Of a stretch of DNA of 39,505 nucleotides, positions 1 to 31,304 are shown in pieces. Where the stretch lies: contig JAFGSP010000167.1 in NCBI GenBank assembly GCA_016934775.1, forward strand, positions 1 through 39,505, read 5' to 3'. The notes beneath the pieces were generated by a model. That model saw nothing but the letters and a program-made list of their open reading frames with translations, did no database searches and was not told where the DNA came from. Position 1 is the first letter of the stretch; each line of letters begins with the position of its first letter. The position numbers and the translations under genes are program-made. The DNA is from Candidatus Woesearchaeota archaeon. GTDB lineage: Archaea; Nanobdellota; Nanobdellia; Woesearchaeales; GW2011-AR15.

Positions 1-848
1 ACTGCATTGACAATGTCATTGTCAGAACCAAGAGACCTGCTCAAGATAGTAGGATTAGCTGCGATCAGTATAGCAGCCATGAATCCTGCCAGATTTCCTG
101 ATACTTTTTTCCCTATAAAAAAAGCTGCAATGATTGCAAAAAATGATAAAAACATGGGCGTAAGGAATGCTGCCCGCATGAGCGTCATTTTAGGATTGAA
201 AAAACCAAGAAACTTATAAAGAAAAAATTCTGCATAAGGGTAAAAATTAGGATCAGCAGGAAAACCATGCGGAGCAAACATATGAGTGTCATACTGAAGC
301 CCATCTTTAACCACGTCTCCATACATTCCTTTCTCGACAAGGTTTCCGGCATATCTCAACCAGAAATACGAGTCAATATCACCAAGATAAGTGTATCCTG
401 AACTATCTTCCACAAATCTGTCTTTGAGGTTTGCCGCGCTAGTGACAACTGCATTTTCTATCTGTAGTTGCTCCTGCTCAAGAAACTGGCTGAACTGCTC
501 ATTAATCATGTTCTGCCTTGTTTGTTCAGGTAGGTTCGGATATTGCTGGCTTATCTGGGCTGAGATAGAATTCCTGATATTATTATAAATCCCCTGTCTT
601 GCCCATTCTTCGGATATCCTGAGTTCTGAAGGCTGCAGCCTTATGCTAATTGACAGGATAATCGGAACCAGGATCAAAAACAAGATAAGAAATCTGGAAA
701 AAAACGGCCTCAATTTTCTAAGATCAATTATTATATCTTCAGATTCTCTTTTTTTAGATTTTGTATTGTCTTTTCCTGAAAAAACACCCTTCAGCCATGA
801 AAAATCAAAAGTCACTTGTTCTTCTTTATTCGCTTTGCTCTTCTTCAT
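1..848 (-). CDS. aglB: Oligosaccharyltransferase AglB/STT3, N-terminal part (3' end runs off the left window edge)
   Basis: Absent from the ORF track (no stop in window). Hand translation of the minus strand from ATG at 848 stays open to position 1. It reads MKKSKANKEEQ...RPFFSRFLILFLILVPIILSISIRL (TM1), then GYTYLGDIDSYFWLRYAGNLVEKG (acidic/aromatic first-loop motif typical of STT3/AglB), then further TM segments (TPMFLSFFAIIAAFFIG, LAGFMAAILIAANP). GGGGGA (853-858) lies 4 nt upstream of the ATG. Confidence 0.6.
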   Translation of the reverse strand, partial: MKKSKANKEEQVTFDFSWLKGVFSGKDNTKSKKRESEDIIIDLRKLRPFFSRFLILFLILVPIILSISIRLQPSELRISEEWARQGIYNNIRNSISAQISQQYPNLPEQTRQNMINEQFSQFLEQEQLQIENAVVTSAANLKDRFVEDSSGYTYLGDIDSYFWLRYAGNLVEKGMYGDVVKDGLQYDTHMFAPHGFPADPNFYPYAEFFLYKFLGFFNPKMTLMRAAFLTPMFLSFFAIIAAFFIGKKVSGNLAGFMAAILIAANPTILSRSLGSDNDIVNA

Positions 849-1011
849 AAAATCCCCCTAAGATTCATATAATGAAATATACAGTCTTTTTAAATATTAT
901 GATATATTAAAAGACGAGTATGGACTGTTTTCAGAACACATCTCCTAAGAATTTTTTTCTTTCATAATTATTAATGCATAAATTAAGTAATTATTCAAAA
1001 AGTTAGTTGTA

Positions 1012-2445
1012 TCATTTACCCATGAATTTTCTCATCAAGGGATTCATATCATACATATGCTCCCTTGCTATGTCTTCATAGAGCTTGTAAATAATCATGA
1101 CTGTAAGAAGAATTCCCGTTCCTCTGGATAGCGCGCCCATAAGATCTGCAATAGCTGCAAGGAAACCTACTGTAATAGCGCCCATGACTGTAAGAGGAAG
1201 GATATATCTATCCAGCAGCCTTTCCAGAATCCTCCTGTCTTTCCTGAATCCAGGTATCTGAAGCCCAGACGCCATTATCTGGTCAGCAAGACTTTTTGAA
1301 TCCTGGCCTGAAGTTTGGACCCAGAATAATGAAAAAAGCACAGAGCCTCCGATCATAAGTACGATATAAATCAAGGAATTAAGTATCACTGGACCAAGTA
1401 CTGACCATTGCCCGCCGCTCTGGAAGATTGTCTGGACCAGATTAGGCCCATTGAGGACAGAGATAAGCCCAACTGGAACTCCTCCTTGGGTATATCCTCC
1501 AAGCAACGGCAAAGGATTTCCTCCTGTCCAGTTCTGGAGCAGCCTTACCCATAATTGAAGTGTCGCAAACAAAGATGCAACTAAAATAACTGGGATGTTG
1601 CTTGTATATATGAACTGCAAAGGCCATCTGATGCCATGACCTCTGACTCTTCCAAATGACAAAGGTATCTCAACTTTCATCGCCTGTGAATAAACAGCAA
1701 TAGCAAAAACAATAAGCGTAGCAACTATTGTTATTATTGAGATTGACGCTCCTGAAAAATCTGCTTCCAGCAAAGAAATGATTATGCTCCATAACTGACC
1801 GACTATCGGGCCTTGAAAAGAAGATTCCCATATAAGGTTTCCTGCTGTATCTGAAAAAGAGACCAGCCTTATGAACATCTGCTTGCTTATGCCCGCAGCA
1901 ATAAAGAGAGAAATTCCTGATCCGAATCCCCATTTGCTTACAATTTCATCCATAAACAGCACTATTATTCCGCCAAGGAAAAGCTGGAAAACCAAAAGCA
2001 ACTGGTATTGCAGCCTTAATGCGCCAACTGCAGCATTAGGTGGAGCGATCCCCCCCATGAACACATAGATGAATCCCTCAAAGATTATGAAAAAGATTCC
2101 TACAAGCTTCTGTACTCCCTGATATCTCTGCTTCCCTTCATGTGTCGTGAGGTCAAATTTTATAATCCCTGCTCCATTGAGCAACTGAAGTATGATAGAC
2201 CCTGTTACTATGGGGCCGATTCCCAAAGACAGCAAAGAGCCGAACTCAGCTCCAAGAATGATTGAAAGATATTCAAACTGTGCCAGAGTGTTTTCTCCCA
2301 GTGGCCATAACGGAATCATTCCCAGGACAAAAAACAGGACAAGAACAACAAGAGTCCATTTCAGCCTCTCACTGAAAGGAAGCCGTTTCTGTTTTGGTGA
2401 CTCAACTTCCGGCAAGTTAAGTATCAGATCATCAAAAAAACTCAT
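1012..2445 (-). CDS. secY: Preprotein translocase subunit SecY
   Basis: 477-aa polytopic membrane ORF with SecY-like segments GIGPIVTGSIILQLL and GGIIVLFMDEIVSKWGFGSGISLFIAAGI. Lies directly after uL15, as in archaeal spc clusters. Confidence 0.95.
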   Translation of the reverse strand: MSFFDDLILNLPEVESPKQKRLPFSERLKWTLVVLVLFFVLGMIPLWPLGENTLAQFEYLSIILGAEFGSLLSLGIGPIVTGSIILQLLNGAGIIKFDLTTHEGKQRYQGVQKLVGIFFIIFEGFIYVFMGGIAPPNAAVGALRLQYQLLLVFQLFLGGIIVLFMDEIVSKWGFGSGISLFIAAGISKQMFIRLVSFSDTAGNLIWESSFQGPIVGQLWSIIISLLEADFSGASISIITIVATLIVFAIAVYSQAMKVEIPLSFGRVRGHGIRWPLQFIYTSNIPVILVASLFATLQLWVRLLQNWTGGNPLPLLGGYTQGGVPVGLISVLNGPNLVQTIFQSGGQWSVLGPVILNSLIYIVLMIGGSVLFSLFWVQTSGQDSKSLADQIMASGLQIPGFRKDRRILERLLDRYILPLTVMGAITVGFLAAIADLMGALSRGTGILLTVMIIYKLYEDIAREHMYDMNPLMRKFMGK

Positions 2446-19529: not shown

Positions 19530-20321
19530 TTACTTCGTGAATCTCCACAATTCTTCGATCATATCAAACGCTGTATATCCATATCCTTTCTGCTTGAACA
19601 TGTGCTCGCCAAGCCTTCCGTTTATGAAGGCTGCCTGCTTTGCAGATTCAAAAAGATCTCCGGATTGCGCAACATAGCCAGCGCATATGCCTGCAAGTAT
19701 ATCTCCTGTGCCTCCGACTGTCATAGAATTGTGGCCTGTCTTGTTAATATGCCGCCTGTGCTTTGTGAAAACTGTGTCTGAGACCCCTTTAAGCAGAATC
19801 ACATTGTTGCCTATGTTCTTCTGGATGCTCTTGATGTTCACATCAATATCAAGCTCATCGTAATCCGGCTTCTTGACTGTGTTCTTGTATAGGATCTCAA
19901 ATTCCTTTGTGTGCGGAGTCAGGACGCTGTTCGAGACAATATCAAGGTTCAGCACTTTTATGGCGTCCGCATCCAGGACAAAAGGCTTCTTTATCTCTCT
20001 TATGAGCTTGAAGACAAAATCCTTTTTTAGGCCAAGACCATTACCGAGGGCTACGACATCATAATGCTCGCTCATCGATATGATTTCTTTGCAATGCGTC
20101 AGATTCAGCTCATCTCCCAGGAATTTCTTTGTGATGAGGTCTGGAGAATAGCTGTTTATCACCCACGCCGCGTTTTCCGGAGCGCATATGGTGACAATAT
20201 CTACGCCTGTCCTTAGGGCAGCCATAGCCACAAAAGCAGGCGCACCGACATAATCCTTGCTCCCTCCCACAACAAGCAATTTCCCGTTCTGGCCCTTGTA
20301 ATCCTTCCGCCTAAGCTTCAT
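19530..20321 (-). CDS. ADP-dependent NAD(P)H-hydrate dehydratase (YjeF C-terminal / carbohydrate kinase family)
   Basis: GKLLVVGGSKDYVGAPAFVAMAALRTGVDIVTICAP ... LTPHTKEF ... TVGGTGDILAGICAG. Confidence 0.85.
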   Translation of the reverse strand: MKLRRKDYKGQNGKLLVVGGSKDYVGAPAFVAMAALRTGVDIVTICAPENAAWVINSYSPDLITKKFLGDELNLTHCKEIISMSEHYDVVALGNGLGLKKDFVFKLIREIKKPFVLDADAIKVLNLDIVSNSVLTPHTKEFEILYKNTVKKPDYDELDIDVNIKSIQKNIGNNVILLKGVSDTVFTKHRRHINKTGHNSMTVGGTGDILAGICAGYVAQSGDLFESAKQAAFINGRLGEHMFKQKGYGYTAFDMIEELWRFTK

Positions 20322-21933
20322 CTTTATTGGTCATCCTCTTCTCTTTTTTAATCTTTTCCCTGTACTGCCTCCTCATCTCCTTCTGCTCATCTGTCAACCT
20401 TGCACGTCCTTTTGAAGATTTATTATTGAGTACAAAGGCTCGCCTTTTTGAGTACTGGACAGGGTTCTTGATGCGCTCACAAAGATTATCCGGATGGCAT
20501 ACCCCGAAATCCTGGTAATATGACCTGCAGTTCGGAGGCAAAATTTTCTTTTTTTTCTGCCTATGGTATCTTATCTGGTTCCTTATCATAGCCTCTCTCA
20601 GTGGCTCCTTGTTCTTTCTGTTCCACTCCAGAAGAAGCTCTTCTGCCCTATCATGCGGCCATCCTGCAGATGTCAGAAAATTTGTGAGCACAAACATAGC
20701 TCTCTTTCTTCCATCTTCAAGGCCTTTCAGAATCTCCTGGATACAGGGAGGGAATAATTCCTCAGGAATCTGAGCCGTGATTTCCTCATAAGTTCTCTGT
20801 AGCCCATCTTTTTTTTCAGGTTCTTCTTTTAACTTGTGAGTATAGTCAAAAGCTGCTATCATGAGCCTCATGGCCTCGTCTTTCTCTGCCACAGAAGAGT
20901 CAAGAAACATTGGCATATTGCTCTCAAAAACTTTCTCCGGTTCTGCCTGGTTTTTCTCAAACCCCATTATTATGTCTGGTGAGACAGGAATAGAAACAAG
21001 GCCTGATTTTTCATGCATGCTATACGGAGCCCTGTACATGTGCCTGGAAGAGATAAGGATAGTGTCTACATCAACAATCGACAATGGGTCAAAAATCTCT
21101 TTAAAATCGTTTGAGCCGCATGAGCATAGGCTGGACTCATGCTCTATTTTCTCCATAAGTATCCCGCATCTCGGACAGACCATAGAGGCTGTGCTGTCTT
21201 CTTTTACAGCTGCCCTGCCGCATCTGGAGCAGATAAATTCCTTTTTTGACAAGAGTGTTTTCTTCTTTATCTCTTTCCTGCAGTTTGTGCATAACGTCTT
21301 GCTTAGCTCTTCATGGCTCTTATTAGTTATACTGCATATCTCTTCTATTGTTGTCGTATAGATGTTGTCAAAGATAATCTCTCCTGTTTTTTTCACTGTT
21401 ATCAGATTGTTTGCTATATAGTCAAGAAGATAAAGCGCTATCCTCTTCGGACCGTCAGGAAACCAGTTCTTCACAGGCATCTCGTTTATGTTATCCGGAA
21501 AAGATTCAAACGGCACGCCTATATGGAACCCCTTGTTCCCTGAGAACTTGCAGCTTATCGATTTTATGCCATGCATCTTCAATGCCTTAATGAAAAGATG
21601 TGTTGTGAGTTTTGAGAAATGCCAGTAAGGGCAATCAATATCAAGGACAAGGTCCCATCCTGACCTAAGCTCATCAAGGTCCTGCTTCCTCATCTCTGTC
21701 GTTAACTTAAGAGGATCTTCCCATCTCTCTTCAGAAACGTGAAAGCTTGTCGCGCCTTTTTTCACTGGCCCCATAACATCGTTCTCATATATAAGGACAT
21801 CCGGCCTTTTTCCAAAGCCCCTTGTGCCATATCTTATGCCCACTTCCCTGTCTGAGCTGGCATCCGCTATCGCTTTTTGGACATGTCTCTGTTTATAATA
21901 AAGGAGCCGTCTGCTTATATCCAGCATCATCAT
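20311..21933 (-). CDS. DNA primase, single-chain fusion of PriS catalytic domain and a PriL C-terminal (4Fe-4S) domain
   Basis: PriS motifs: GWDLVLDIDCP (metal-binding DxD), SGNKGFHIGVPF, and SRHMYRAPYSMHEKSGLVSIPV. Inserted CxxC zinc modules (CTNC, CSRC, CPRC). C-terminal PriL-CTD-like LFPPCIQEILKGLEDGRKRAMFVLTNFLTSAGW plus PPNCRSYYQDFGVCHPDNLC, giving 4 Cys. Start trimmed to the ATG triplet at 21933-21925 (MMMLDISRR...); the ORF-track start at 22101 overlaps the Toprim gene. Confidence 0.85.
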   Translation of the reverse strand: MMMLDISRRLLYYKQRHVQKAIADASSDREVGIRYGTRGFGKRPDVLIYENDVMGPVKKGATSFHVSEERWEDPLKLTTEMRKQDLDELRSGWDLVLDIDCPYWHFSKLTTHLFIKALKMHGIKSISCKFSGNKGFHIGVPFESFPDNINEMPVKNWFPDGPKRIALYLLDYIANNLITVKKTGEIIFDNIYTTTIEEICSITNKSHEELSKTLCTNCRKEIKKKTLLSKKEFICSRCGRAAVKEDSTASMVCPRCGILMEKIEHESSLCSCGSNDFKEIFDPLSIVDVDTILISSRHMYRAPYSMHEKSGLVSIPVSPDIIMGFEKNQAEPEKVFESNMPMFLDSSVAEKDEAMRLMIAAFDYTHKLKEEPEKKDGLQRTYEEITAQIPEELFPPCIQEILKGLEDGRKRAMFVLTNFLTSAGWPHDRAEELLLEWNRKNKEPLREAMIRNQIRYHRQKKKKILPPNCRSYYQDFGVCHPDNLCERIKNPVQYSKRRAFVLNNKSSKGRARLTDEQKEMRRQYREKIKKEKRMTNKDEA

Positions 21934-21952
21934 AAATTGGAAAGGGAACAGA

Positions 21953-21960
21953 TTTATATG
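21953..21960. promoter_or_regulatory. Single central TATA-like element shared by the divergent primase and Toprim genes
   Basis: TTTATATG (21953-21960) lies in a 49-bp spacer. It is about 23 nt from the primase ATG (21933, minus) and about 26 nt from the Toprim ATG (21983, plus). There is no SD-like sequence on either side. Confidence 0.45.
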
Positions 21961-21982
21961 TTTTAATGCGATCAACTGCAGT

Positions 21983-22363
21983 ATGGAGGATGAACTGGAT
22001 GCTTTGGCTGAGAAGATAGATGAACTAAAAAAGACCGGGCTTCCGATAATCGTAGAAGGAAAAAAAGATAAGACTGCGATGAATAAGCTTGGGATAACCA
22101 ATATCCATATATTAAAAGAGCCTGTATATCAGATATGCGAAAAAATAGCTGAAAAACACAAAAAAGCAGTAATCCTGACAGATCTTGATCCTGAAGGGAA
22201 AAAACTGTATTCTAAAATCAGAGAGGGACTGGAAAAGAATGGCTGTGCTGTGGATGACACCTTCAGAGAGTTCTTATTCAGAAAAACAAAACTGAGGCAG
22301 ATTGAAGGATTAAGAAACTATATGATTAGGCTTGAGAACAAGGCTCAAGACATAAATTTATAA
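21983..22363 (+). CDS. Small Toprim-domain protein (RNase M5 / small primase-like family)
   Basis: LPIIVEGKKDKTAMNKLGI (Toprim Glu) and AVILTDLDPEGKKLY (DxD). Confidence 0.8.
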   Translation: MEDELDALAEKIDELKKTGLPIIVEGKKDKTAMNKLGITNIHILKEPVYQICEKIAEKHKKAVILTDLDPEGKKLYSKIREGLEKNGCAVDDTFREFLFRKTKLRQIEGLRNYMIRLENKAQDINL

Positions 22364-22851: not shown

Positions 22852-24939
22852 TCATCTCAGCTTGAAGAAGGCAACTCCTGCCAGAAACAATACTGCTATG
22901 ATAAAATATAGTGAATAATCCTTAAGCTTGGCTGAAGATGACATATATATTGTTTTGGCTGTTGCAGGAGATACATAATCTGTGGATTTCTCTATAATAG
23001 AATCTTCTTCTTTCTCGTCTTTTTTGAGTTCAGAAGAGACATGGGATTCAGAGGCTGCTGTTTCAGGAATATTCACCTTAATCTCCTGAATAATCTCATT
23101 AGGTGTTTTCCTGTCATCTCTCTGAACCAGCACCTTAAACTTATAATCTCCTGCAGAGATGTCTGTAAAGGTATTTTTTAGTAGAACATAGTCTGTCCCG
23201 TAGCCATCAACTGAAAGACCTATTTTGTTTTTCTCTCTTTCACCTGAGTATGATTTTGAGCCCCTATAAACATAGCTCCAGACAGAGTAGTTATGGCTTT
23301 TGTTTTCAGGATTTGTAAGTCTGACAGCGGCCATAACCTCATCAGATGCATTGGCTGTGAAATATACTAGCTCATATTGTACTACTTTTTCTTTTGTTTC
23401 GGTTGAAATCTGTGTCTTCTGGCCGCATTCATCAGATTGTCCTATATACAGCTTCTTCTCTGCTTTTGCATCCAGACCTTCTACCACCAAAGTATATTCG
23501 CCGGGATCATCACTGCATTTCAGCTGTATCGGCAAGCTGAATTCATATTCTTGGTATTGTGACTTGAGATTGATGCTTGTTGTCTCGCTGACTTTTGTGC
23601 TGCCTTTCGCCACATATGCCTTGACTGAGTATTTTCTTGTGTCTCCCTTATAGACCTTGACATCCGCTTTCAACAATCCCCCAAATATTGCCTGCTGGCT
23701 TATGCTTGTTATCCTGATTGTGCTCTTATCCTCTTCTTCAGATACTGATCCTGAATCATCAGCTGAGCCTCTGACAACAACAAGATACTCACCTTCTGTT
23801 TGGTTATTTGAATTGTTGCATGCTATCCAAGCAAGTTTAGACTTTATAATAAAGGCCATGTCTGTCTCATCAAATTTCGGCGTATATGATTTCTTGTTAG
23901 TGTTCTTTGTCAGCACAGGCTTTTTGACCTGCTTGCCAAAAAGGTCCTCTACCCAGTATTCTATCTGATAAGGAAATGACTCATTGCTCAATTCATGAAA
24001 AAAATAGATTTTCTCACCCTCTTCAAACAGCTGCTTCTCAACACCAAGAGAAAGTGAGATATTGCATTGATGAAGGCCGGGGTCTTCAGGAGACACCTCG
24101 ACGCATAATGAAAAATTTGAGCCTTCTATGGCTCCGCATATCTGATATTGGCCCAGAATGCCGAACAAAAAAGGCGAGCAGGTCTGTGAGGTGTATGACT
24201 TCAGAGACACATTCAGAGATTCCTCATGCAGAAGAACATATTCATGACTCTGGTTGACTGTGCTGTTCATGATCGAGATATTGTAATAGAAGCCAGCATA
24301 TATCTTGTCCTGCCCTTTTTCATAATAGTTATTTGTAATCCTGAAAAAAGAATCATACTCACCCCCAAGATATATAGCGCCTGGCATATTTGAGGAGAGG
24401 GAAAACTGTGGCTGTGCAGCTTTTTCCTCTTCCTGCTTATCAGCATAAAAAGATCTTTCTATATTGGCCTGAAAGGGCGTGGGCTCTGATTCAAGCCAAG
24501 TATCATTAAAAAGGGAAATCGAATAGCCTTCTTCCGCAATATCTGAATAATTTACAGCGCAGCTTTCATTTGTTGTATCATCAAAAAATATAAGTTCCTC
24601 GCCTGCTGAATTTGATAAAGAAAATGAAGAAGACATCAGCATGCCGCTGATATTATACTCATATCCGAATGCCTCGGGATCCCTGGCGGCCACCATATAT
24701 TCCAATGGAAGCAAGGTAATATTCCCTGAACACAATGAAATGCCATGGTCAACTTCTGCTTCCCTGAATCTCCATCCTGAAAGATTGATAGAATCATTGC
24801 CTGCATTATAAAGCTCTATCCATTCCCTTCCTGTATCGCTTCCTTCTGGATCATACATTATCTCGCTTATTCTCAACTCAGCATTCACTGAATAAGATAA
24901 TGTGAAAAAAAGGCATATGAGAACAATTTTTCTGGTCAT
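22852..24939 (-). CDS. Secreted, C-terminally anchored surface protein with N-terminal lamin-tail domain (LTD); predicted N-glycoprotein
   Basis: Signal peptide MTRKIVLICLFFTLSYSVNA. LTD signature ELRISEIMYDPEGSDTGREWIELYNAGNDSINLSGWRF. C-terminal TM segment YSLYFIIAVLFLAGVAFFKLR. 19 N-x-S/T sequons by hand count. Start placed at ATG 24939 because the TATA-like AAAATATTTATAG (24961-24973, minus) is only about 9 nt from the ORF-track ATG at 24957. Confidence 0.8.
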   Translation of the reverse strand: MTRKIVLICLFFTLSYSVNAELRISEIMYDPEGSDTGREWIELYNAGNDSINLSGWRFREAEVDHGISLCSGNITLLPLEYMVAARDPEAFGYEYNISGMLMSSSFSLSNSAGEELIFFDDTTNESCAVNYSDIAEEGYSISLFNDTWLESEPTPFQANIERSFYADKQEEEKAAQPQFSLSSNMPGAIYLGGEYDSFFRITNNYYEKGQDKIYAGFYYNISIMNSTVNQSHEYVLLHEESLNVSLKSYTSQTCSPFLFGILGQYQICGAIEGSNFSLCVEVSPEDPGLHQCNISLSLGVEKQLFEEGEKIYFFHELSNESFPYQIEYWVEDLFGKQVKKPVLTKNTNKKSYTPKFDETDMAFIIKSKLAWIACNNSNNQTEGEYLVVVRGSADDSGSVSEEEDKSTIRITSISQQAIFGGLLKADVKVYKGDTRKYSVKAYVAKGSTKVSETTSINLKSQYQEYEFSLPIQLKCSDDPGEYTLVVEGLDAKAEKKLYIGQSDECGQKTQISTETKEKVVQYELVYFTANASDEVMAAVRLTNPENKSHNYSVWSYVYRGSKSYSGEREKNKIGLSVDGYGTDYVLLKNTFTDISAGDYKFKVLVQRDDRKTPNEIIQEIKVNIPETAASESHVSSELKKDEKEEDSIIEKSTDYVSPATAKTIYMSSSAKLKDYSLYFIIAVLFLAGVAFFKLR

Positions 24940-25032
24940 GACAGAAAGCTTCTCCATCTACTATAAATATTTTACTAAAAAAATAAACATAATAAATTTT
25001 TTTGTCTGAATAAAAAAGACCAAAAACTAAGA

Positions 25033-25067
25033 AGCGCAGGCGCTGTCAAAAAAGTCAGCTTGCTGAC
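25033..25067. promoter_or_regulatory. Two adjacent GC-rich palindromes in an otherwise AT-rich divergent promoter region (candidate operator sites)
   Basis: AGCGC-AG-GCGCT (25033-25044) and GTCAGC-TT-GCTGAC (25054-25067). They lie between the LTD gene TATA (about 24966) and the TATA-like GTTTTAAAAA (25093-25102) of the Pro-rich gene. Confidence 0.3.
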
Positions 25068-25115
25068 TCAGAACTATTTATCAAAACAAAAAGTTTTAAA
25101 AACCCCAGTGAACTT

Positions 25116-26012
25116 ATGAATAGAGGGAATATGGGTTTTTTAGACAGTTTCAAGAAAAAAGAGGATTCACCTATCTTAAATTCTCCTCAGGGGAACAAAG
25201 ACCTTCCCCCTCTTTCAAAATTAGTCCCCCCGCCTCCCGGCGCGCCTGCCCAGGGCGCAGGACAGGATAATCTCCCTTTGCCTCCTTCGCCTGGTGGCTC
25301 TTCCAACAACCAAGAAAATCCTGGCTCTGCTATTGAAAACGCATTTACTAATTCTCTTGATAAATCAGTAGATTCTCCAGCGCAAAAGAGGCCGCTGCCT
25401 CCTCTGACACCCCCTCCGAAGAGACATCTGGATTCAGAACCCTTATTCCAGTCTGCGCCCCTGCCTCCTGAAAAAAACGGTGTTGATTTTTCATATACGC
25501 AGGATTCACAGGAGATGCAACAGCCAACTGCGCAGCATCCGTCTGAAGTTCCTCTTGATCTTCCTCAGCTTCCTCCTCTTTCACAACAGGAGGGAAGTGT
25601 CAAAGCAGGACCGAATTTCCAGACAAAGACCTATATGACCCATGAGGTCAAGAACGATAATGAGATCATTGAAGATATCCCTTATTTTTCAGATGTCGGA
25701 GACCAGGCACTGGTCCAAGAAGCAAATCCGATGCTTGATGACCTGCCGATGCTCGACGCAGAAGGACCGGAGATATACAGGAACCTCAGGCCTGAGATTA
25801 CAAAGCCACTTTTCATAAGGACAGATTTCTACAGCCAGGTGCTCACAAACCTTGATAATATAAAATCGTATGTGAATGAATCTTCAGAGATAATATATAA
25901 CCTTGAGAACCTGAAGAGGAATTCTGATTCTGAGCACAGGTATTTCAAGAAAGTCCTTGAGGACATACAAAGGAAACTCATCTATATCGACAGAGTATTA
26001 TTCAACGGGTGA
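25116..26012 (+). CDS. Proline-rich disordered protein with C-terminal coiled-coil domain (paralog 1 of 3; unknown family)
   Basis: About 200 aa of low-complexity Pro-rich sequence (PPPPGAPAQGAG, LPLPPSPGG, RPLPPLTPPPKR, APLPPEKNG, LPQLPPLSQQ), then a helical domain FIRTDFYSQVLTNL...LEDIQRKLIYIDRVLF. The start could be ATG 25131 (MGFLDSFKKK). Confidence 0.6.
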   Translation: MNRGNMGFLDSFKKKEDSPILNSPQGNKDLPPLSKLVPPPPGAPAQGAGQDNLPLPPSPGGSSNNQENPGSAIENAFTNSLDKSVDSPAQKRPLPPLTPPPKRHLDSEPLFQSAPLPPEKNGVDFSYTQDSQEMQQPTAQHPSEVPLDLPQLPPLSQQEGSVKAGPNFQTKTYMTHEVKNDNEIIEDIPYFSDVGDQALVQEANPMLDDLPMLDAEGPEIYRNLRPEITKPLFIRTDFYSQVLTNLDNIKSYVNESSEIIYNLENLKRNSDSEHRYFKKVLEDIQRKLIYIDRVLFNG

Positions 26013-26026
26013 AAAGAGGGAGAATC

Positions 26027-26254
26027 ATGAGAAAAGACCAGAATGTTTTTGTCAGGATCGATGAATATAAAGATGTGCTGGACATCATCACATTAGTCAA
26101 TGAAAAAGTCAAAGAGGCCAGGATAGTCCTTGGCAAGATAAATGACCTTAAGAACCAGGAAGATAATGAGCTCGATGCATGGAGAAACTCACTCGATGAT
26201 GTTGAGAGGAAGATGAAATATATCGACCAGACCTTGTTCGAGCCGAGATACTAA
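26027..26254 (+). CDS. Small coiled-coil protein (paralog 2 of 3)
   Basis: FVRIDEYKDVLDII...LDDVERKMKYIDQTLF aligns without gaps to the C-terminus of the upstream protein. GAGGGAG (26016-26022) precedes ATG 26027 (the ORF-track start at 26009 is GTG). Confidence 0.6.
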   Translation: MRKDQNVFVRIDEYKDVLDIITLVNEKVKEARIVLGKINDLKNQEDNELDAWRNSLDDVERKMKYIDQTLFEPRY

Positions 26255-26255
26255 T

Positions 26256-26591
26256 ATGAAAGACGGATTTTTTGTCGGGATCTATGATCCTATCGATGTC
26301 AGGAGGAATCTTCTTGAGAATTCCAAGGAAATAGTGAAATCTTTGCAGTACTATGATAAGCTTAAGGAGATAAGGTCAAACAAGCTTATGCTTTTCCAGG
26401 AGATGAAGACTGTGATGGAAGAGCTTGACCTCCTTGTCACGAAACTAAAAGAGAAATTGCCAAAATCCCACCTCAGGAAAGTCCAAGAGGAAAAAGAGAA
26501 GCATTCACCTGAAAAGTTCAGCTCTGAGCTAGACCAACTGGAGAAGCAGCTCAGGATTATCGAAAATGAGCTGTCCGGGATGGACGGCTGA
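26256..26591 (+). CDS. Small coiled-coil protein (distant paralog 3 of 3)
   Basis: The ATG lies 1 nt after the upstream stop. N-terminus FVGIYDPIDVRRNLLEN... resembles the F-V-R-I-D start of paralogs 1 and 2. The rest is predicted helical and K/E/L-rich. Confidence 0.55.
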   Translation: MKDGFFVGIYDPIDVRRNLLENSKEIVKSLQYYDKLKEIRSNKLMLFQEMKTVMEELDLLVTKLKEKLPKSHLRKVQEEKEKHSPEKFSSELDQLEKQLRIIENELSGMDG

Positions 26592-26641
26592 TCAGCTTAT
26601 TCTTCATAAGATTAATATAAAAAGAACAATTCCTGATAGCC

Positions 26642-27316
26642 ATGAAAGTTTTTATCGTCATCCCGGCATATAATGAGGCAGGAAAGATAAGAAGAGTCCT
26701 TTTGAAGCTGAAGAAAAACAGCTATAAGAACATCATTGTAGTGGATGACGGTTCAAAGGACTGCACAGCAAAGATTGCTGAGGAATCCGGCGCATATGTG
26801 CTTAAGCATGTCATCAACAGGGGGCAGGGGGCAGCATTGAAAACAGGGATTGATTACGCCCTGGAAAAAAAAGCAGACATCATTGTGACCTTTGATGCGG
26901 ATGACCAGTTCATGGTTAAAGAGATAAAGGACATAATATGTCCTGTCGCTAAAGGAGAGGTGGACATCGCTCTGGGATCAAGGTTCTTAGGCAAGGCAGT
27001 GAACATACCCTTTCTGAAAAAGATGGTACTGAAGCTGGGCATCTTTGTTGTCTTTCTTCTATACGGCATTAATATAACAGATTCCCAGGGAGGATTCAGG
27101 GCCATGTCACGGAAGGCCAGCCAGAGGATAAACCTGACAGCAGACAGGATGGAGCATGCTGCTGAATTCTTCTCAGAGATAATGAGAAACAAACTTAAAT
27201 ACAGAGAAGTTCCCATAACAGTAAGATATGATACATATGCCCTGAAGAAAGGCCAGAACTGGAGTGACAGTTTCGGCCTGGGCATGAAGATGCTCTTCAA
27301 CAAGTATATGAGGTAA
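26642..27316 (+). CDS. Family 2 glycosyltransferase (dolichyl/polyprenyl-phosphate sugar synthase-like)
   Basis: VIPAYNEAGKI ... IIVVDDGSKDCT ... TFDADDQF ... GFRAMSRKA. TATA-like ATTAATATAAAAAG lies about 25 nt upstream of the ATG. Confidence 0.88.
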   Translation: MKVFIVIPAYNEAGKIRRVLLKLKKNSYKNIIVVDDGSKDCTAKIAEESGAYVLKHVINRGQGAALKTGIDYALEKKADIIVTFDADDQFMVKEIKDIICPVAKGEVDIALGSRFLGKAVNIPFLKKMVLKLGIFVVFLLYGINITDSQGGFRAMSRKASQRINLTADRMEHAAEFFSEIMRNKLKYREVPITVRYDTYALKKGQNWSDSFGLGMKMLFNKYMR

Positions 27317-30396: not shown

Positions 30397-30437
30397 AATC
30401 CTAAATCTTTTTAAATCTGTTCCTTATGTTATTCAGT

Positions 30438-31304
30438 ATGGTGAGGAAGACGGCGGTCGCAGGCCAGTTCTATGAAGAGGATTTTGACGCATTGAACAAG
30501 CAGATAGAGGAATGCTTCTATTCAGAAAGAGGACCGGGAGACCTGCCTGTGAAAAGGGATGAGAAGAGCAGGATAAAGGCAGTGATAGTGCCGCATGCCG
30601 GCTACGGGTTTTCAGGTGCGTGCGCTGCCTGGGCTTACAAAGAGATAGCAGAGGCGAAGTTTCCCAAGGCATTCTTATTGCTAGGGCCTAATCATTTTGG
30701 TACGGGCTCAGGCATGAGCATAGAAGACTGGAAGATGCCGTTCGGCCTTGTAAAGTCAGAAAAAGACTTGATAAGGGGCATTAAGGAGAATACTTCCTTA
30801 GGCATAGCAGAGCATAACCATATAACAGAGCATTCATTAGAGGTGCAGCTGCCTTTGCTGCAGTTCTCAAACAGGGACAGGATGGCGGACATAAGGATAA
30901 TTCCTGCAGTCATTAGCAGGGACATAGATTTTTTGGAGCTGGGAAAAGAGCTCTACGATTATCTAAAAGGAAAAGATATCACAATAATAATAAGCTCTGA
31001 CTTCACGCATTACGGCCCTAACTACAGCTTTATGCCTTTCACAACAGACATCCCTGAAAGATTGACAAAGCTGGACAAGCAGGCCATAGACCTCATCAGC
31101 AATTATGATGTATCTGGATTCAAAGATTTTGTGAACAAGACCCAGATAACCATATGCGGGTATATGCCAATCCTCGTATTCTTAGCCATGATGCAGCACT
31201 ATGAAGAAAAGCCAAAGCCCCATCTATTGATGCATTACACATCAGGCGATGTCATCGGTGATTACAGGAACTCTGTCAGCTATGTCAGCATGGTGTTCAA
31301 GTAG
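30438..31304 (+). CDS. Memo-family protein (AmmeMemoRadiSam system protein B)
   Basis: VAGQFYEED ... AVIVPHAGYGFSGACAAWAY ... GPNHFG ... EHSLEVQLPLLQF ... SSDFTHYGPNY. Start placed at ATG 30438 (TATA-like CTTTTTAAATC at 30408-30418); the ORF-track start is 30426. Confidence 0.88.
   Translation: MVRKTAVAGQFYEEDFDALNKQIEECFYSERGPGDLPVKRDEKSRIKAVIVPHAGYGFSGACAAWAYKEIAEAKFPKAFLLLGPNHFGTGSGMSIEDWKMPFGLVKSEKDLIRGIKENTSLGIAEHNHITEHSLEVQLPLLQFSNRDRMADIRIIPAVISRDIDFLELGKELYDYLKGKDITIIISSDFTHYGPNYSFMPFTTDIPERLTKLDKQAIDLISNYDVSGFKDFVNKTQITICGYMPILVFLAMMQHYEEKPKPHLLMHYTSGDVIGDYRNSVSYVSMVFK

Follow-up and report, generated by a model that had tools for sequence, protein, structure and literature searches.

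A conserved three-gene module of Woesearchaeota that may encode a membrane-associated coiled-coil complex

What is encoded by three small genes that follow each other almost without gaps on an archaeal chromosome, and whose products fall in no recognised family? The question is raised by a stretch of 39,505 nucleotides (nt) from a Candidatus Woesearchaeota archaeon (assembly GCA_016934775.1, contig JAFGSP010000167.1), hereafter called the window, in which three consecutive open reading frames (ORFs) occupy positions 25116..26012, 26027..26254 and 26256..26591 of the plus strand. They are designated g1, g2 and g3, and together the trio. Woesearchaeota are placed in the kingdom Nanobdellati, the former DPANN, and the window reads as part of an archaeal chromosomal core; the SecY that it encodes at 1012-2445 has archaeal SecY structures as its best matches. 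Our preferred answer, to which we assign a probability of roughly 40%, is that the trio constitutes a translationally coupled operon of Woesearchaeota encoding one hetero-oligomeric coiled-coil complex that lines the membrane on its cytoplasmic side. This answer builds on the conservation of the trio, the paralogy between g2 and the C-terminal domain of g1 (g1-C), the tight spacing of the genes, the enrichment of a short motif in g1, and the predicted long helices and complementary charges of the products.

Conservation, paralogy and arrangement of the trio

The distribution of the trio was assessed in a species-level scan of Woesearchaeota and Nanoarchaeota assemblies, with one genome per species. 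The scan matched 103 encoding loci, 80 of which were retrieved and examined; neighbour and spacing counts were partly made over 83 sequences (given as x/83), and counts of g1 orthologs over the 80 loci. A word-index search with g2 yielded 113 homologs, all of 69-89 amino acids (aa), sharing 50-89% identity and all originating from Woesearchaeota or Nanoarchaeota assemblies. With a local hidden Markov model (HMM) of g2, which served to find g1-type genes, a second copy of the g2 domain was detected at the extreme C-terminus of the product of the directly upstream gene in 79 of the 80 loci. In the 80th (L076), the position of g1 is taken by a divergent ORF of 408 aa. A g3-type gene follows g2 in 79/83 sequences, and the trio is kept in more divergent lineages too. 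Thus, the three genes stay together in the related genomes.

The domain common to g2 and g1 is abundant in a wider collection. An exhaustive profile search at E<=1e-3 returned 2,941 representatives at 50% identity, of which 865 reached E<=1e-10, and the best 150 of the 2,941 were either ~75 aa long or carried the domain at their C-terminal end. The consensus covers ~70 aa and reads P-phi-F-V-K-x-D-x-Y-K-x-phi-L ... K..D.E...W/F ... phi-D-x-x-L-F-E. Both g1 and g2 of the window fit it, one with the domain at the extreme C-terminus and the other as a stand-alone protein. Mean pairwise identity amounts to 0.53 for g2, 0.36 for g3 and 0.32 for g1-C, which makes g2 the most constrained of the three.

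In the original prediction, all three genes were considered paralogs on the basis of an ungapped alignment between the end of g1 and g2 and a related N-terminus in g3. The alignment was confirmed: BLASTP pairs residues 232-296 of the g1 ORF with residues 7-71 of g2 without gaps, with 21/65 identities and E=3e-11, and the family-level HHalign comparison of g2 with g1-C gives a probability of 99.7% (E=1e-25). The inclusion of g3 did not survive. BLASTP detects nothing between g2 and g3; HHalign reaches 20.7% for this pair, with only a short C-terminal helix of the type ELxxLExxLxxIE aligned, and 3% for g1-C against g3. Likewise, an HMM of the N-terminal segment FVxIxD/E..DV of g2 and g1-C did not score g3 N-termini above background ORFs (none among the top 20 matches and four among the top 100). 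The proposal of a third paralog was therefore rejected, all three tests being negative. As judged by these comparisons, g1-C and g2 are true paralogs and g3 represents a distinct partner family; a very old kinship of g3 with the g2/g1-C domain, in favour of which nothing was found, is not demonstrable at this level.

The features of the locus, in window coordinates, are as follows.

22852..24957, minus strand: LTD-domain surface protein, divergent from the trio, with a signal peptide and a C-terminal transmembrane (TM) anchor (Pfam LTD, E=2.6e-15)
24958..25130: intergenic region common to g1 and the divergent surface-protein gene
25131..26012, plus strand: g1, 293 aa, putative membrane-anchor-like subunit (from the ORF and the conserved N-terminus)
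25131..25160, plus strand: N-terminal motif MGFLDSFKKK of g1, a putative amphipathic membrane-targeting helix, short, hydrophobic and basic
25161..25799, plus strand: acidic, proline-rich, disordered linker of g1, variable in length, with repeated [DE]-phi-P-x-phi-[PS] motifs
25200-25217, 25557-25574 and 25674-25691, plus strand: the linker motifs DLPPLS, DLPQLP and DIPYFS of g1, respectively
25800..26009, plus strand: C-terminal helical domain of g1, ~70 aa, paralogous to g2 (BLASTP, g2 HMM, HHalign)
26015..26022, plus strand: Shine-Dalgarno-like AGAGGGAG ahead of g2, read from the sequence
26027..26254, plus strand: g2, 75 aa, stand-alone acidic long-helix protein
26256..26591, plus strand: g3, 111 aa, distinct coiled-coil partner

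The original prediction correctly described three adjacent ORFs with minimal spacing, and GAGGGAG is indeed found upstream of the g2 start codon (ATG 26027), with 1 nt separating the g2 stop and the g3 start. It identified the ORF of g1 correctly but let the gene begin at 25116, which gives 298 aa. We place the start at 25131 (293 aa) because the conserved N-terminus begins there, an AGAGGGA motif stands ahead of it, and a gene call of 293 aa exists in the databases. Thus, g1 probably starts at ATG 25131, 15 nt downstream of the position first proposed. The AGAGGGA motif lies at 25122-25128, and the same motif is present upstream of g2. The suggestion of co-translation is in agreement with the other genomes as well, where the median spacing is 6.5 nt between g1 and g2 and 2 nt between g2 and g3, with overlaps in several genomes, and where a Shine-Dalgarno-like motif is found at -18..-4 of the g2 start in 80/83 sequences. 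A scan of 24900-26700 with bacterial-type models revealed no terminator-like sites, and the promoter-like matches obtained with such models all fell outside 24958..25130. Two short perfect palindromes are present between the LTD gene and g1, i.e., AGCGCAGGCGCT (25034-25045) and GTCAGCTTGCTGAC (25056-25069), and both could be sites for a regulator.

Searches of family and structure libraries bore out the claim that the module is undescribed. None of the three proteins matched Pfam or NCBIfam above the cut-off, PHROGs and PADLOC gave no matches either, and sequence and profile searches of the PDB stopped at a best E of 0.014. Foldseek found 0 matches in the PDB for the g3 model. Existing annotation assigns no function to the trio proteins, and the literature searches retrieved no description of the trio. 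Pfam scans of each member of both alignments produced only coiled-coil noise (NPV_P10, Laminin_II, MtrG and EAD9). For EAD9 (Effector-associated domain 9), a weak match was seen in 9/30 g3 members, the best with E=3.8e-5, and these matches, too, are probably helical or coiled-coil noise. At the level of sequence, the trio is an undescribed module comprising two or three new protein families. Two database entries were discarded along the way. A large match (P0226) is a trimeric autotransporter adhesin and constitutes a repeat artefact. In another (P0203; NCBI PCI29197.1, labelled SAR324 cluster bacterium), a bacterial SBP_bac_5 N-terminus with signal peptide is joined abruptly to g2-like sequence; this chimera most likely arose when a public metagenome-assembled genome was assembled or binned.

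Predicted anatomy of the proteins

The three proteins contain no TM segment (maximum KD19 <0.9), as had been stated before, and no Cys. In g1, two features were found that the original prediction did not mention, i.e., a conserved, putatively amphipathic and basic N-terminal motif and repeated motifs in the linker. The N-terminus, M-[GA]-[FIL]-[FL]-x-F-[LF]-K-K-x-K, can be made out in 74/80 g1 orthologs and has a median net charge of +2. Its hydrophobic moment reaches 0.39 for the window protein, with a median of 0.37 among orthologs, as compared to a median of 0.24 for 11-mers of the linkers. These properties are compatible with a short membrane-targeting sequence, and from them we infer that g1 binds the membrane.

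The linker that follows corresponds to the proline-rich arm that had been noticed before; the window protein contains 38 Pro in 293 aa. Total g1 length varies from 127 to 371 aa among the loci. The linkers have medians of 139 aa, 18% Pro and a net charge of -8.5, and the charge of the window linker is -16. Motif enrichment was determined by comparing observed numbers with those in shuffled sequences. The motif [DE]-phi-P-x-phi-[PS] occurs 172 times where 10.1 occurrences are expected, a 17-fold excess, and is present in 68/74 proteins, with its first copy at approximately residue 22. The wider pattern phi-P-x-phi-P gives 270 matches vs. 38.6 expected.

The g2 protein is predicted by AlphaFold2 (AF2), run on single proteins with family alignments, as a single helix spanning residues 11-70, with a predicted local distance difference test score (pLDDT) of 83. 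Its invariant residues include Y14, L18, K27, A31, L41, K42, N43, E45, D46, W52, L70 and P73, and its hallmarks are a DLKNQED motif, W52 and a C-terminal TLFEP. The g3 protein begins with [FY]FVGIxDPxDxRR. Its prediction (pLDDT 80) shows helix 1 at residues 12-67 (nt 26289-26456), ending in LPK, then a variable, disordered linker at residues 68-85 (nt 26457-26510) and helix 2 at residues 86-109 (nt 26511-26582). In most lineages, the linker is Lys-rich, the median net charge being +4 and the highest +15. In two independent g3 orthologs, from loci L068 and L084, the basic linker between the helices contains an inserted C2H2 zinc finger of the classical type, with the sequences FACKQCPATFTKKSDMKKHMKQH and FKCDRCDKEFKSRQSLTKHHKLH, respectively. 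No DNA-binding fold was predicted for g3 by AF2.

The g2 helix and g3 helix 1 are oppositely charged, with medians of -7 and +6, respectively, and these charges are anticorrelated over species (rho=-0.45, p=5e-5, uncorrected for phylogeny). The hetero-oligomer postulated in the original prediction is plausible considering these charges and the predicted long helices of g2 and g3, from which we infer complex formation. In the arrangement that we propose, the short hydrophobic and basic helix at the N-terminus of g1 would bind the membrane, and the protein would project a long, flexible, acidic proline-rich arm, on which the [DE]-phi-P-x-phi-P motifs may serve as docking sites for a partner. At the other end, the C-terminal helix of g1, of ~65 residues, would assemble with the acidic g2 and the basic g3. 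The Lys-rich linker of g3 in most lineages, or the zinc finger in two of them, could contact nucleic acid or acidic lipid.

Genomic surroundings and competing explanations

In the window, the trio is preceded by genes for MCM, TBP, a fused PriS-PriL primase, a CBS protein and the LTD surface protein, and followed by GT2, DUF2304, GT4, GDSL, TPR, Memo, NrdR and HD genes. The flanks had been described accurately as a gene for a sequon-rich surface protein on one side and a glycosylation operon on the other; the LTD protein has 19 N-x-S/T sequons vs. ~6 expected, and GT2, DUF2304, GT4 and GDSL genes lie downstream. The conservation of these neighbours over the loci differs. A homologous divergent surface-protein gene is found upstream in about 50-55/83 loci and is, hence, frequent but not universal; in about one third of the loci another gene takes its place, e.g., one for a radical-SAM enzyme. 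Downstream, GT2 and DUF2304 are present in only 7-8 of ~83 loci, so the linkage with glycosylation genes that had been proposed is limited to close relatives. ScpB and an MJ0538-like winged helix-turn-helix (wHTH) protein, often accompanied by GyrA, are encoded beyond the surface-protein gene on the opposite strand in 46/83 loci, as well as in L089 and L090. Downstream of the trio, RNase J is encoded in 39 loci and PCNA in 27, and GyrA or MCM and primase genes are near in other loci.

Several of these neighbours have features of their own. The primase gene of the window (20311-22101, minus strand) is a single ORF of 596 aa that combines small- and large-subunit domains with a zinc ribbon, i.e., a fused PriS-PriL primase. 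The LTD protein and its homologs in ~50 loci (e.g., L003 3779-4855, L005 and L006) end in SSSAKA[RG], ~20 hydrophobic residues and K[RK]L. This conserved C-terminus of three parts is reminiscent of PGF-CTERM/archaeosortase substrates and may be a dedicated signal for sorting or anchoring. In ~17 loci (L027 4401-5468, minus strand, and 16 others), the divergent gene upstream of the trio encodes an AmmeMemoRadiSam radical-SAM enzyme, and a Memo-like protein is encoded in the window at 30426-31304 (plus strand); parts of the AmmeMemoRadiSam system thus recur near the trio in differing arrangements. The MJ0538-like protein (L003 1523-2191, L005 3100-3747, and 46 loci in all) measures ~200-220 aa, is assigned to PF27325 (MJ0538) in precomputed annotation, always stands beside a long ScpB and shows weak C-terminal winged-helix matches (TrmB/MarR-like); it could be a divergent kleisin (ScpA) partner. 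On the divergent contig L088, a PAN-like AAA ATPase (249-1388, plus strand; Prot_ATP_ID_OB_C, AAA and AAA_lid_3) is encoded directly upstream of the trio on the same strand, a single case. Finally, downstream of the trio on one Woesearchaeal contig (L090 9667-16630, minus strand), a protein of >3,095 aa consisting of many WD40/beta-propeller repeats is encoded.

The simplest explanation, i.e., that the trio consists of fast-evolving filler ORFs or is an annotation artefact, could appeal to the fact that functional annotation is found nowhere. It can practically be dismissed, because the genes are tightly coupled and conserved: g2 remains 50-89% identical with many invariant residues over >100 species, the domain has its 2,941 representatives, and gene order and spacing are maintained, which refutes the idea. 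A role in the envelope, as a scaffold for the LTD surface protein or the glycosylation genes, was the suggestion of the original prediction. The divergent surface-protein gene with its common promoter region in about 50-55/83 loci speaks for it, and so does the GT2, DUF2304 and GT4 cluster downstream in the window. However, this cluster is rarely conserved, about one third of the loci have another upstream gene, and a cytoplasmic tail is practically absent from the surface protein (~3 residues; the window protein ends in FFKLR). The link to the envelope is accordingly weak, and we give this explanation little credence. Even less can be expected of an adaptor function for an AAA ATPase, in which the phi-P-x-phi-P motifs would act as MIM2-like peptides that recruit an MIT-domain protein (Vps4/CdvC-like) or another AAA protein. 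The motifs fit the MIM2 core (PMC8970359) and are enriched, and the PAN-like ATPase gene directly upstream in one divergent locus would suit such a function. Nevertheless, Cdv proteins are reportedly missing from DPANN (PMC8970359, PMC7617429), neither an AAA gene nor one for an MIT-domain Vps4/CdvC partner is found within 6 kb in the other ~80 loci, and short proline motifs are promiscuous, which leaves the adaptor highly improbable.

Two further alternatives are nearer to the reading that we prefer. The trio could tether the chromosome to the membrane or organise the nucleoid together with a condensin-like ScpAB, with g1 attached to the membrane and g3 bound to DNA through its basic or zinc-finger segment. 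The recurrence of ScpB, the MJ0538-like protein and often GyrA upstream, the g3 linkers with charges up to +15, the two zinc-finger orthologs, and the presence of PCNA, MCM or primase nearby in other arrangements are consistent with this idea. It is nonetheless doubtful, as the surface-protein gene stands between the trio and scpB, scpAB does not adjoin the trio in the window or in closely related AR15-type loci, the g3 linker of the window is uncharged on balance and no DNA-binding fold was predicted. It is quite unlikely that the trio provides FtsZ, or some other filament of the cytoskeleton, with an extra membrane anchor or regulator comparable in function to SepF, CdpC or ZipA. The same three-part architecture (PMC8178401; 10.64898/2026.07.16.738847) and the description of DPANN as FtsZ-based dividers (PMC7617429) argue for such an anchor. 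Against it stand the absence of any SepF Pfam match even at E=10, the lack of Cys and hence of CdpC-type zinc fingers, the fact that ftsZ is adjacent in none of ~80 loci, and the SepF that Woesearchaeota already possess (10.1101/2020.10.06.327809).

As for the role of the proposed membrane-associated complex, our best guess is a cell-cycle scaffold acting in division or in the organisation of the chromosome at the membrane, because g1 resembles SepF, CdpC and ZipA in architecture and because genes for replication and segregation recur nearby. The neighbourhood and the features of g3 weakly favour a cell-cycle or chromosome role. A number of observations weigh against the complex or this role. 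The AF2 predictions of single-helix monomers carry no information on partners, and mirror-tree analysis of co-evolution, with ScpB and RNase J as controls, gave no discrimination. The hydrophobic moment of the g1 N-terminus, 0.37, does not reach the 0.49 that marks the 95th percentile for 11-mers of the linkers. In the window, the linker of g3 is short and has zero net charge. Signatures of FtsZ, MinD and AAA proteins were absent within 6 kb of the trio in ~80 loci, and guilt by association is weak since the neighbourhood is a general housekeeping core. Moreover, Woesearchaeota encode SepF (10.1101/2020.10.06.327809), and g1 is therefore not simply a replacement for it.

The trio is likely to be central in function, because the tiny genomes of DPANN archaea retain it over >100 species with a near-invariant subunit of 75 aa. 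A bolder version of our reading, in which the trio would be a lineage-specific essential cell-cycle machine, seems unlikely. In this version, the three coiled-coil proteins would form a membrane-anchored heterotrimer that links the membrane to either the chromosome or the division apparatus and recruits a remodelling partner via its multivalent proline motifs. If true, it would add a previously undescribed component of archaeal division or segregation, unrelated to SepF, CdpB/C, Dip and Cdv. The more general proposal makes the trio a concrete candidate for membrane-associated scaffolding in DPANN division or chromosome handling, in organisms whose cell biology is poorly known. Even as a mere structural coiled-coil accessory, it fills an annotation gap common to thousands of metagenomic proteins.

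Comparison with known systems

ZipA, an FtsZ anchor of gammaproteobacteria, consists of a TM helix, a long, flexible Pro/Gln-rich tether and a globular alpha/beta C-terminal domain that binds FtsZ. The g1 protein is alike in having a putative anchor, a long flexible tether and a C-terminal domain. ZipA differs by its TM helix, its alpha/beta domain and its bacterial origin, and there is no sequence kinship. In SepF, an FtsZ membrane anchor of archaea and bacteria that binds the C-terminal peptide of FtsZ, the core is an alpha/beta dimer with a five-stranded sheet and two helices, whereas g1-C and g2 are each predicted as one long helix, and g1 has two dedicated partner genes. The layout is similar, since SepF is a small cytoplasmic protein that has an amphipathic helix at its N-terminus, a flexible linker and a self-associating C-terminal core (PMC8178401), as in the putative amphipathic-type helix, linker and C-terminal domain of g1. 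None of the three trio proteins of the window matches SepF (PF04472) in Pfam at E up to 10. CdpC (HVO_0399), the FtsZ1 anchor of Haloferax volcanii, combines an amphipathic helix, a long, fast-evolving disordered linker and a conserved C-terminal domain that binds FtsZ1, and its N- and C-terminal domains contain indispensable zinc fingers (bioRxiv 10.64898/2026.07.16.738847). This layout is matched by g1, with its putative amphipathic helix, long disordered linker and conserved C-terminal domain. In contrast, g1 contains 0 Cys and thus no zinc fingers, it has no sequence kinship with CdpC, and CdpC is haloarchaeal.

Other comparisons concern long-helix proteins. The bacterial proteins ZapA/ZapB, DivIVA/GpsB and EzrA are short proteins dominated by long helices, which oligomerise and bridge membrane, filaments or DNA. 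The trio proteins resemble them in being short and dominated by long helices, but show no sequence or profile similarity to them above coiled-coil noise. Prefoldins have a helix, beta-hairpin, helix topology; no Pfam match to prefoldin was found in the trio proteins of the window or among the families listed in the per-member scans, and the AF2 models of g2 and g3 contain no beta-hairpin. In CdvA, a PRC-barrel-like domain at the N-terminus precedes a coiled coil; CdvA gave no Pfam match in the trio proteins of the window, and what precedes the helix in g1 is the proline-rich linker. Snf7 (PF03357), the helical-hairpin core domain of ESCRT-III/CdvB, is not matched by any trio protein of the window at E up to 10 and does not figure in the list of the 25 families that recurred most in the per-member scans at E up to 1. 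The Dip divisome-positioning system, composed of the GTPase DipA, the DUF2073 protein DipB and the Zn-ribbon protein DipC (PMC13228585), was considered and found to be unrelated, as none of these domains occurs in the trio.

The MIM2 core, phi-P-x-phi-P, is found in ESCRT-III/CdvB and in thaumarchaeal CdvA, where it is bound by the MIT domain of Vps4/CdvC (PMC8970359). The linker motifs of g1 fit this core and are preceded by acidic residues. They differ in being repeated along a long linker, where MIM2 is a single C-terminal element, and we consider the resemblance a lead only, as DPANN were reported to lack Cdv proteins (PMC8970359, PMC7617429) and are described as FtsZ-based dividers (PMC7617429). 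By the principle proposed here, the trio would thus be a variant of the class of membrane-tethered, linker-bearing scaffolds exemplified by SepF, CdpC and ZipA, to none of which it is related, with a putative anchor on g1 and two dedicated helical partners in g2 and g3.

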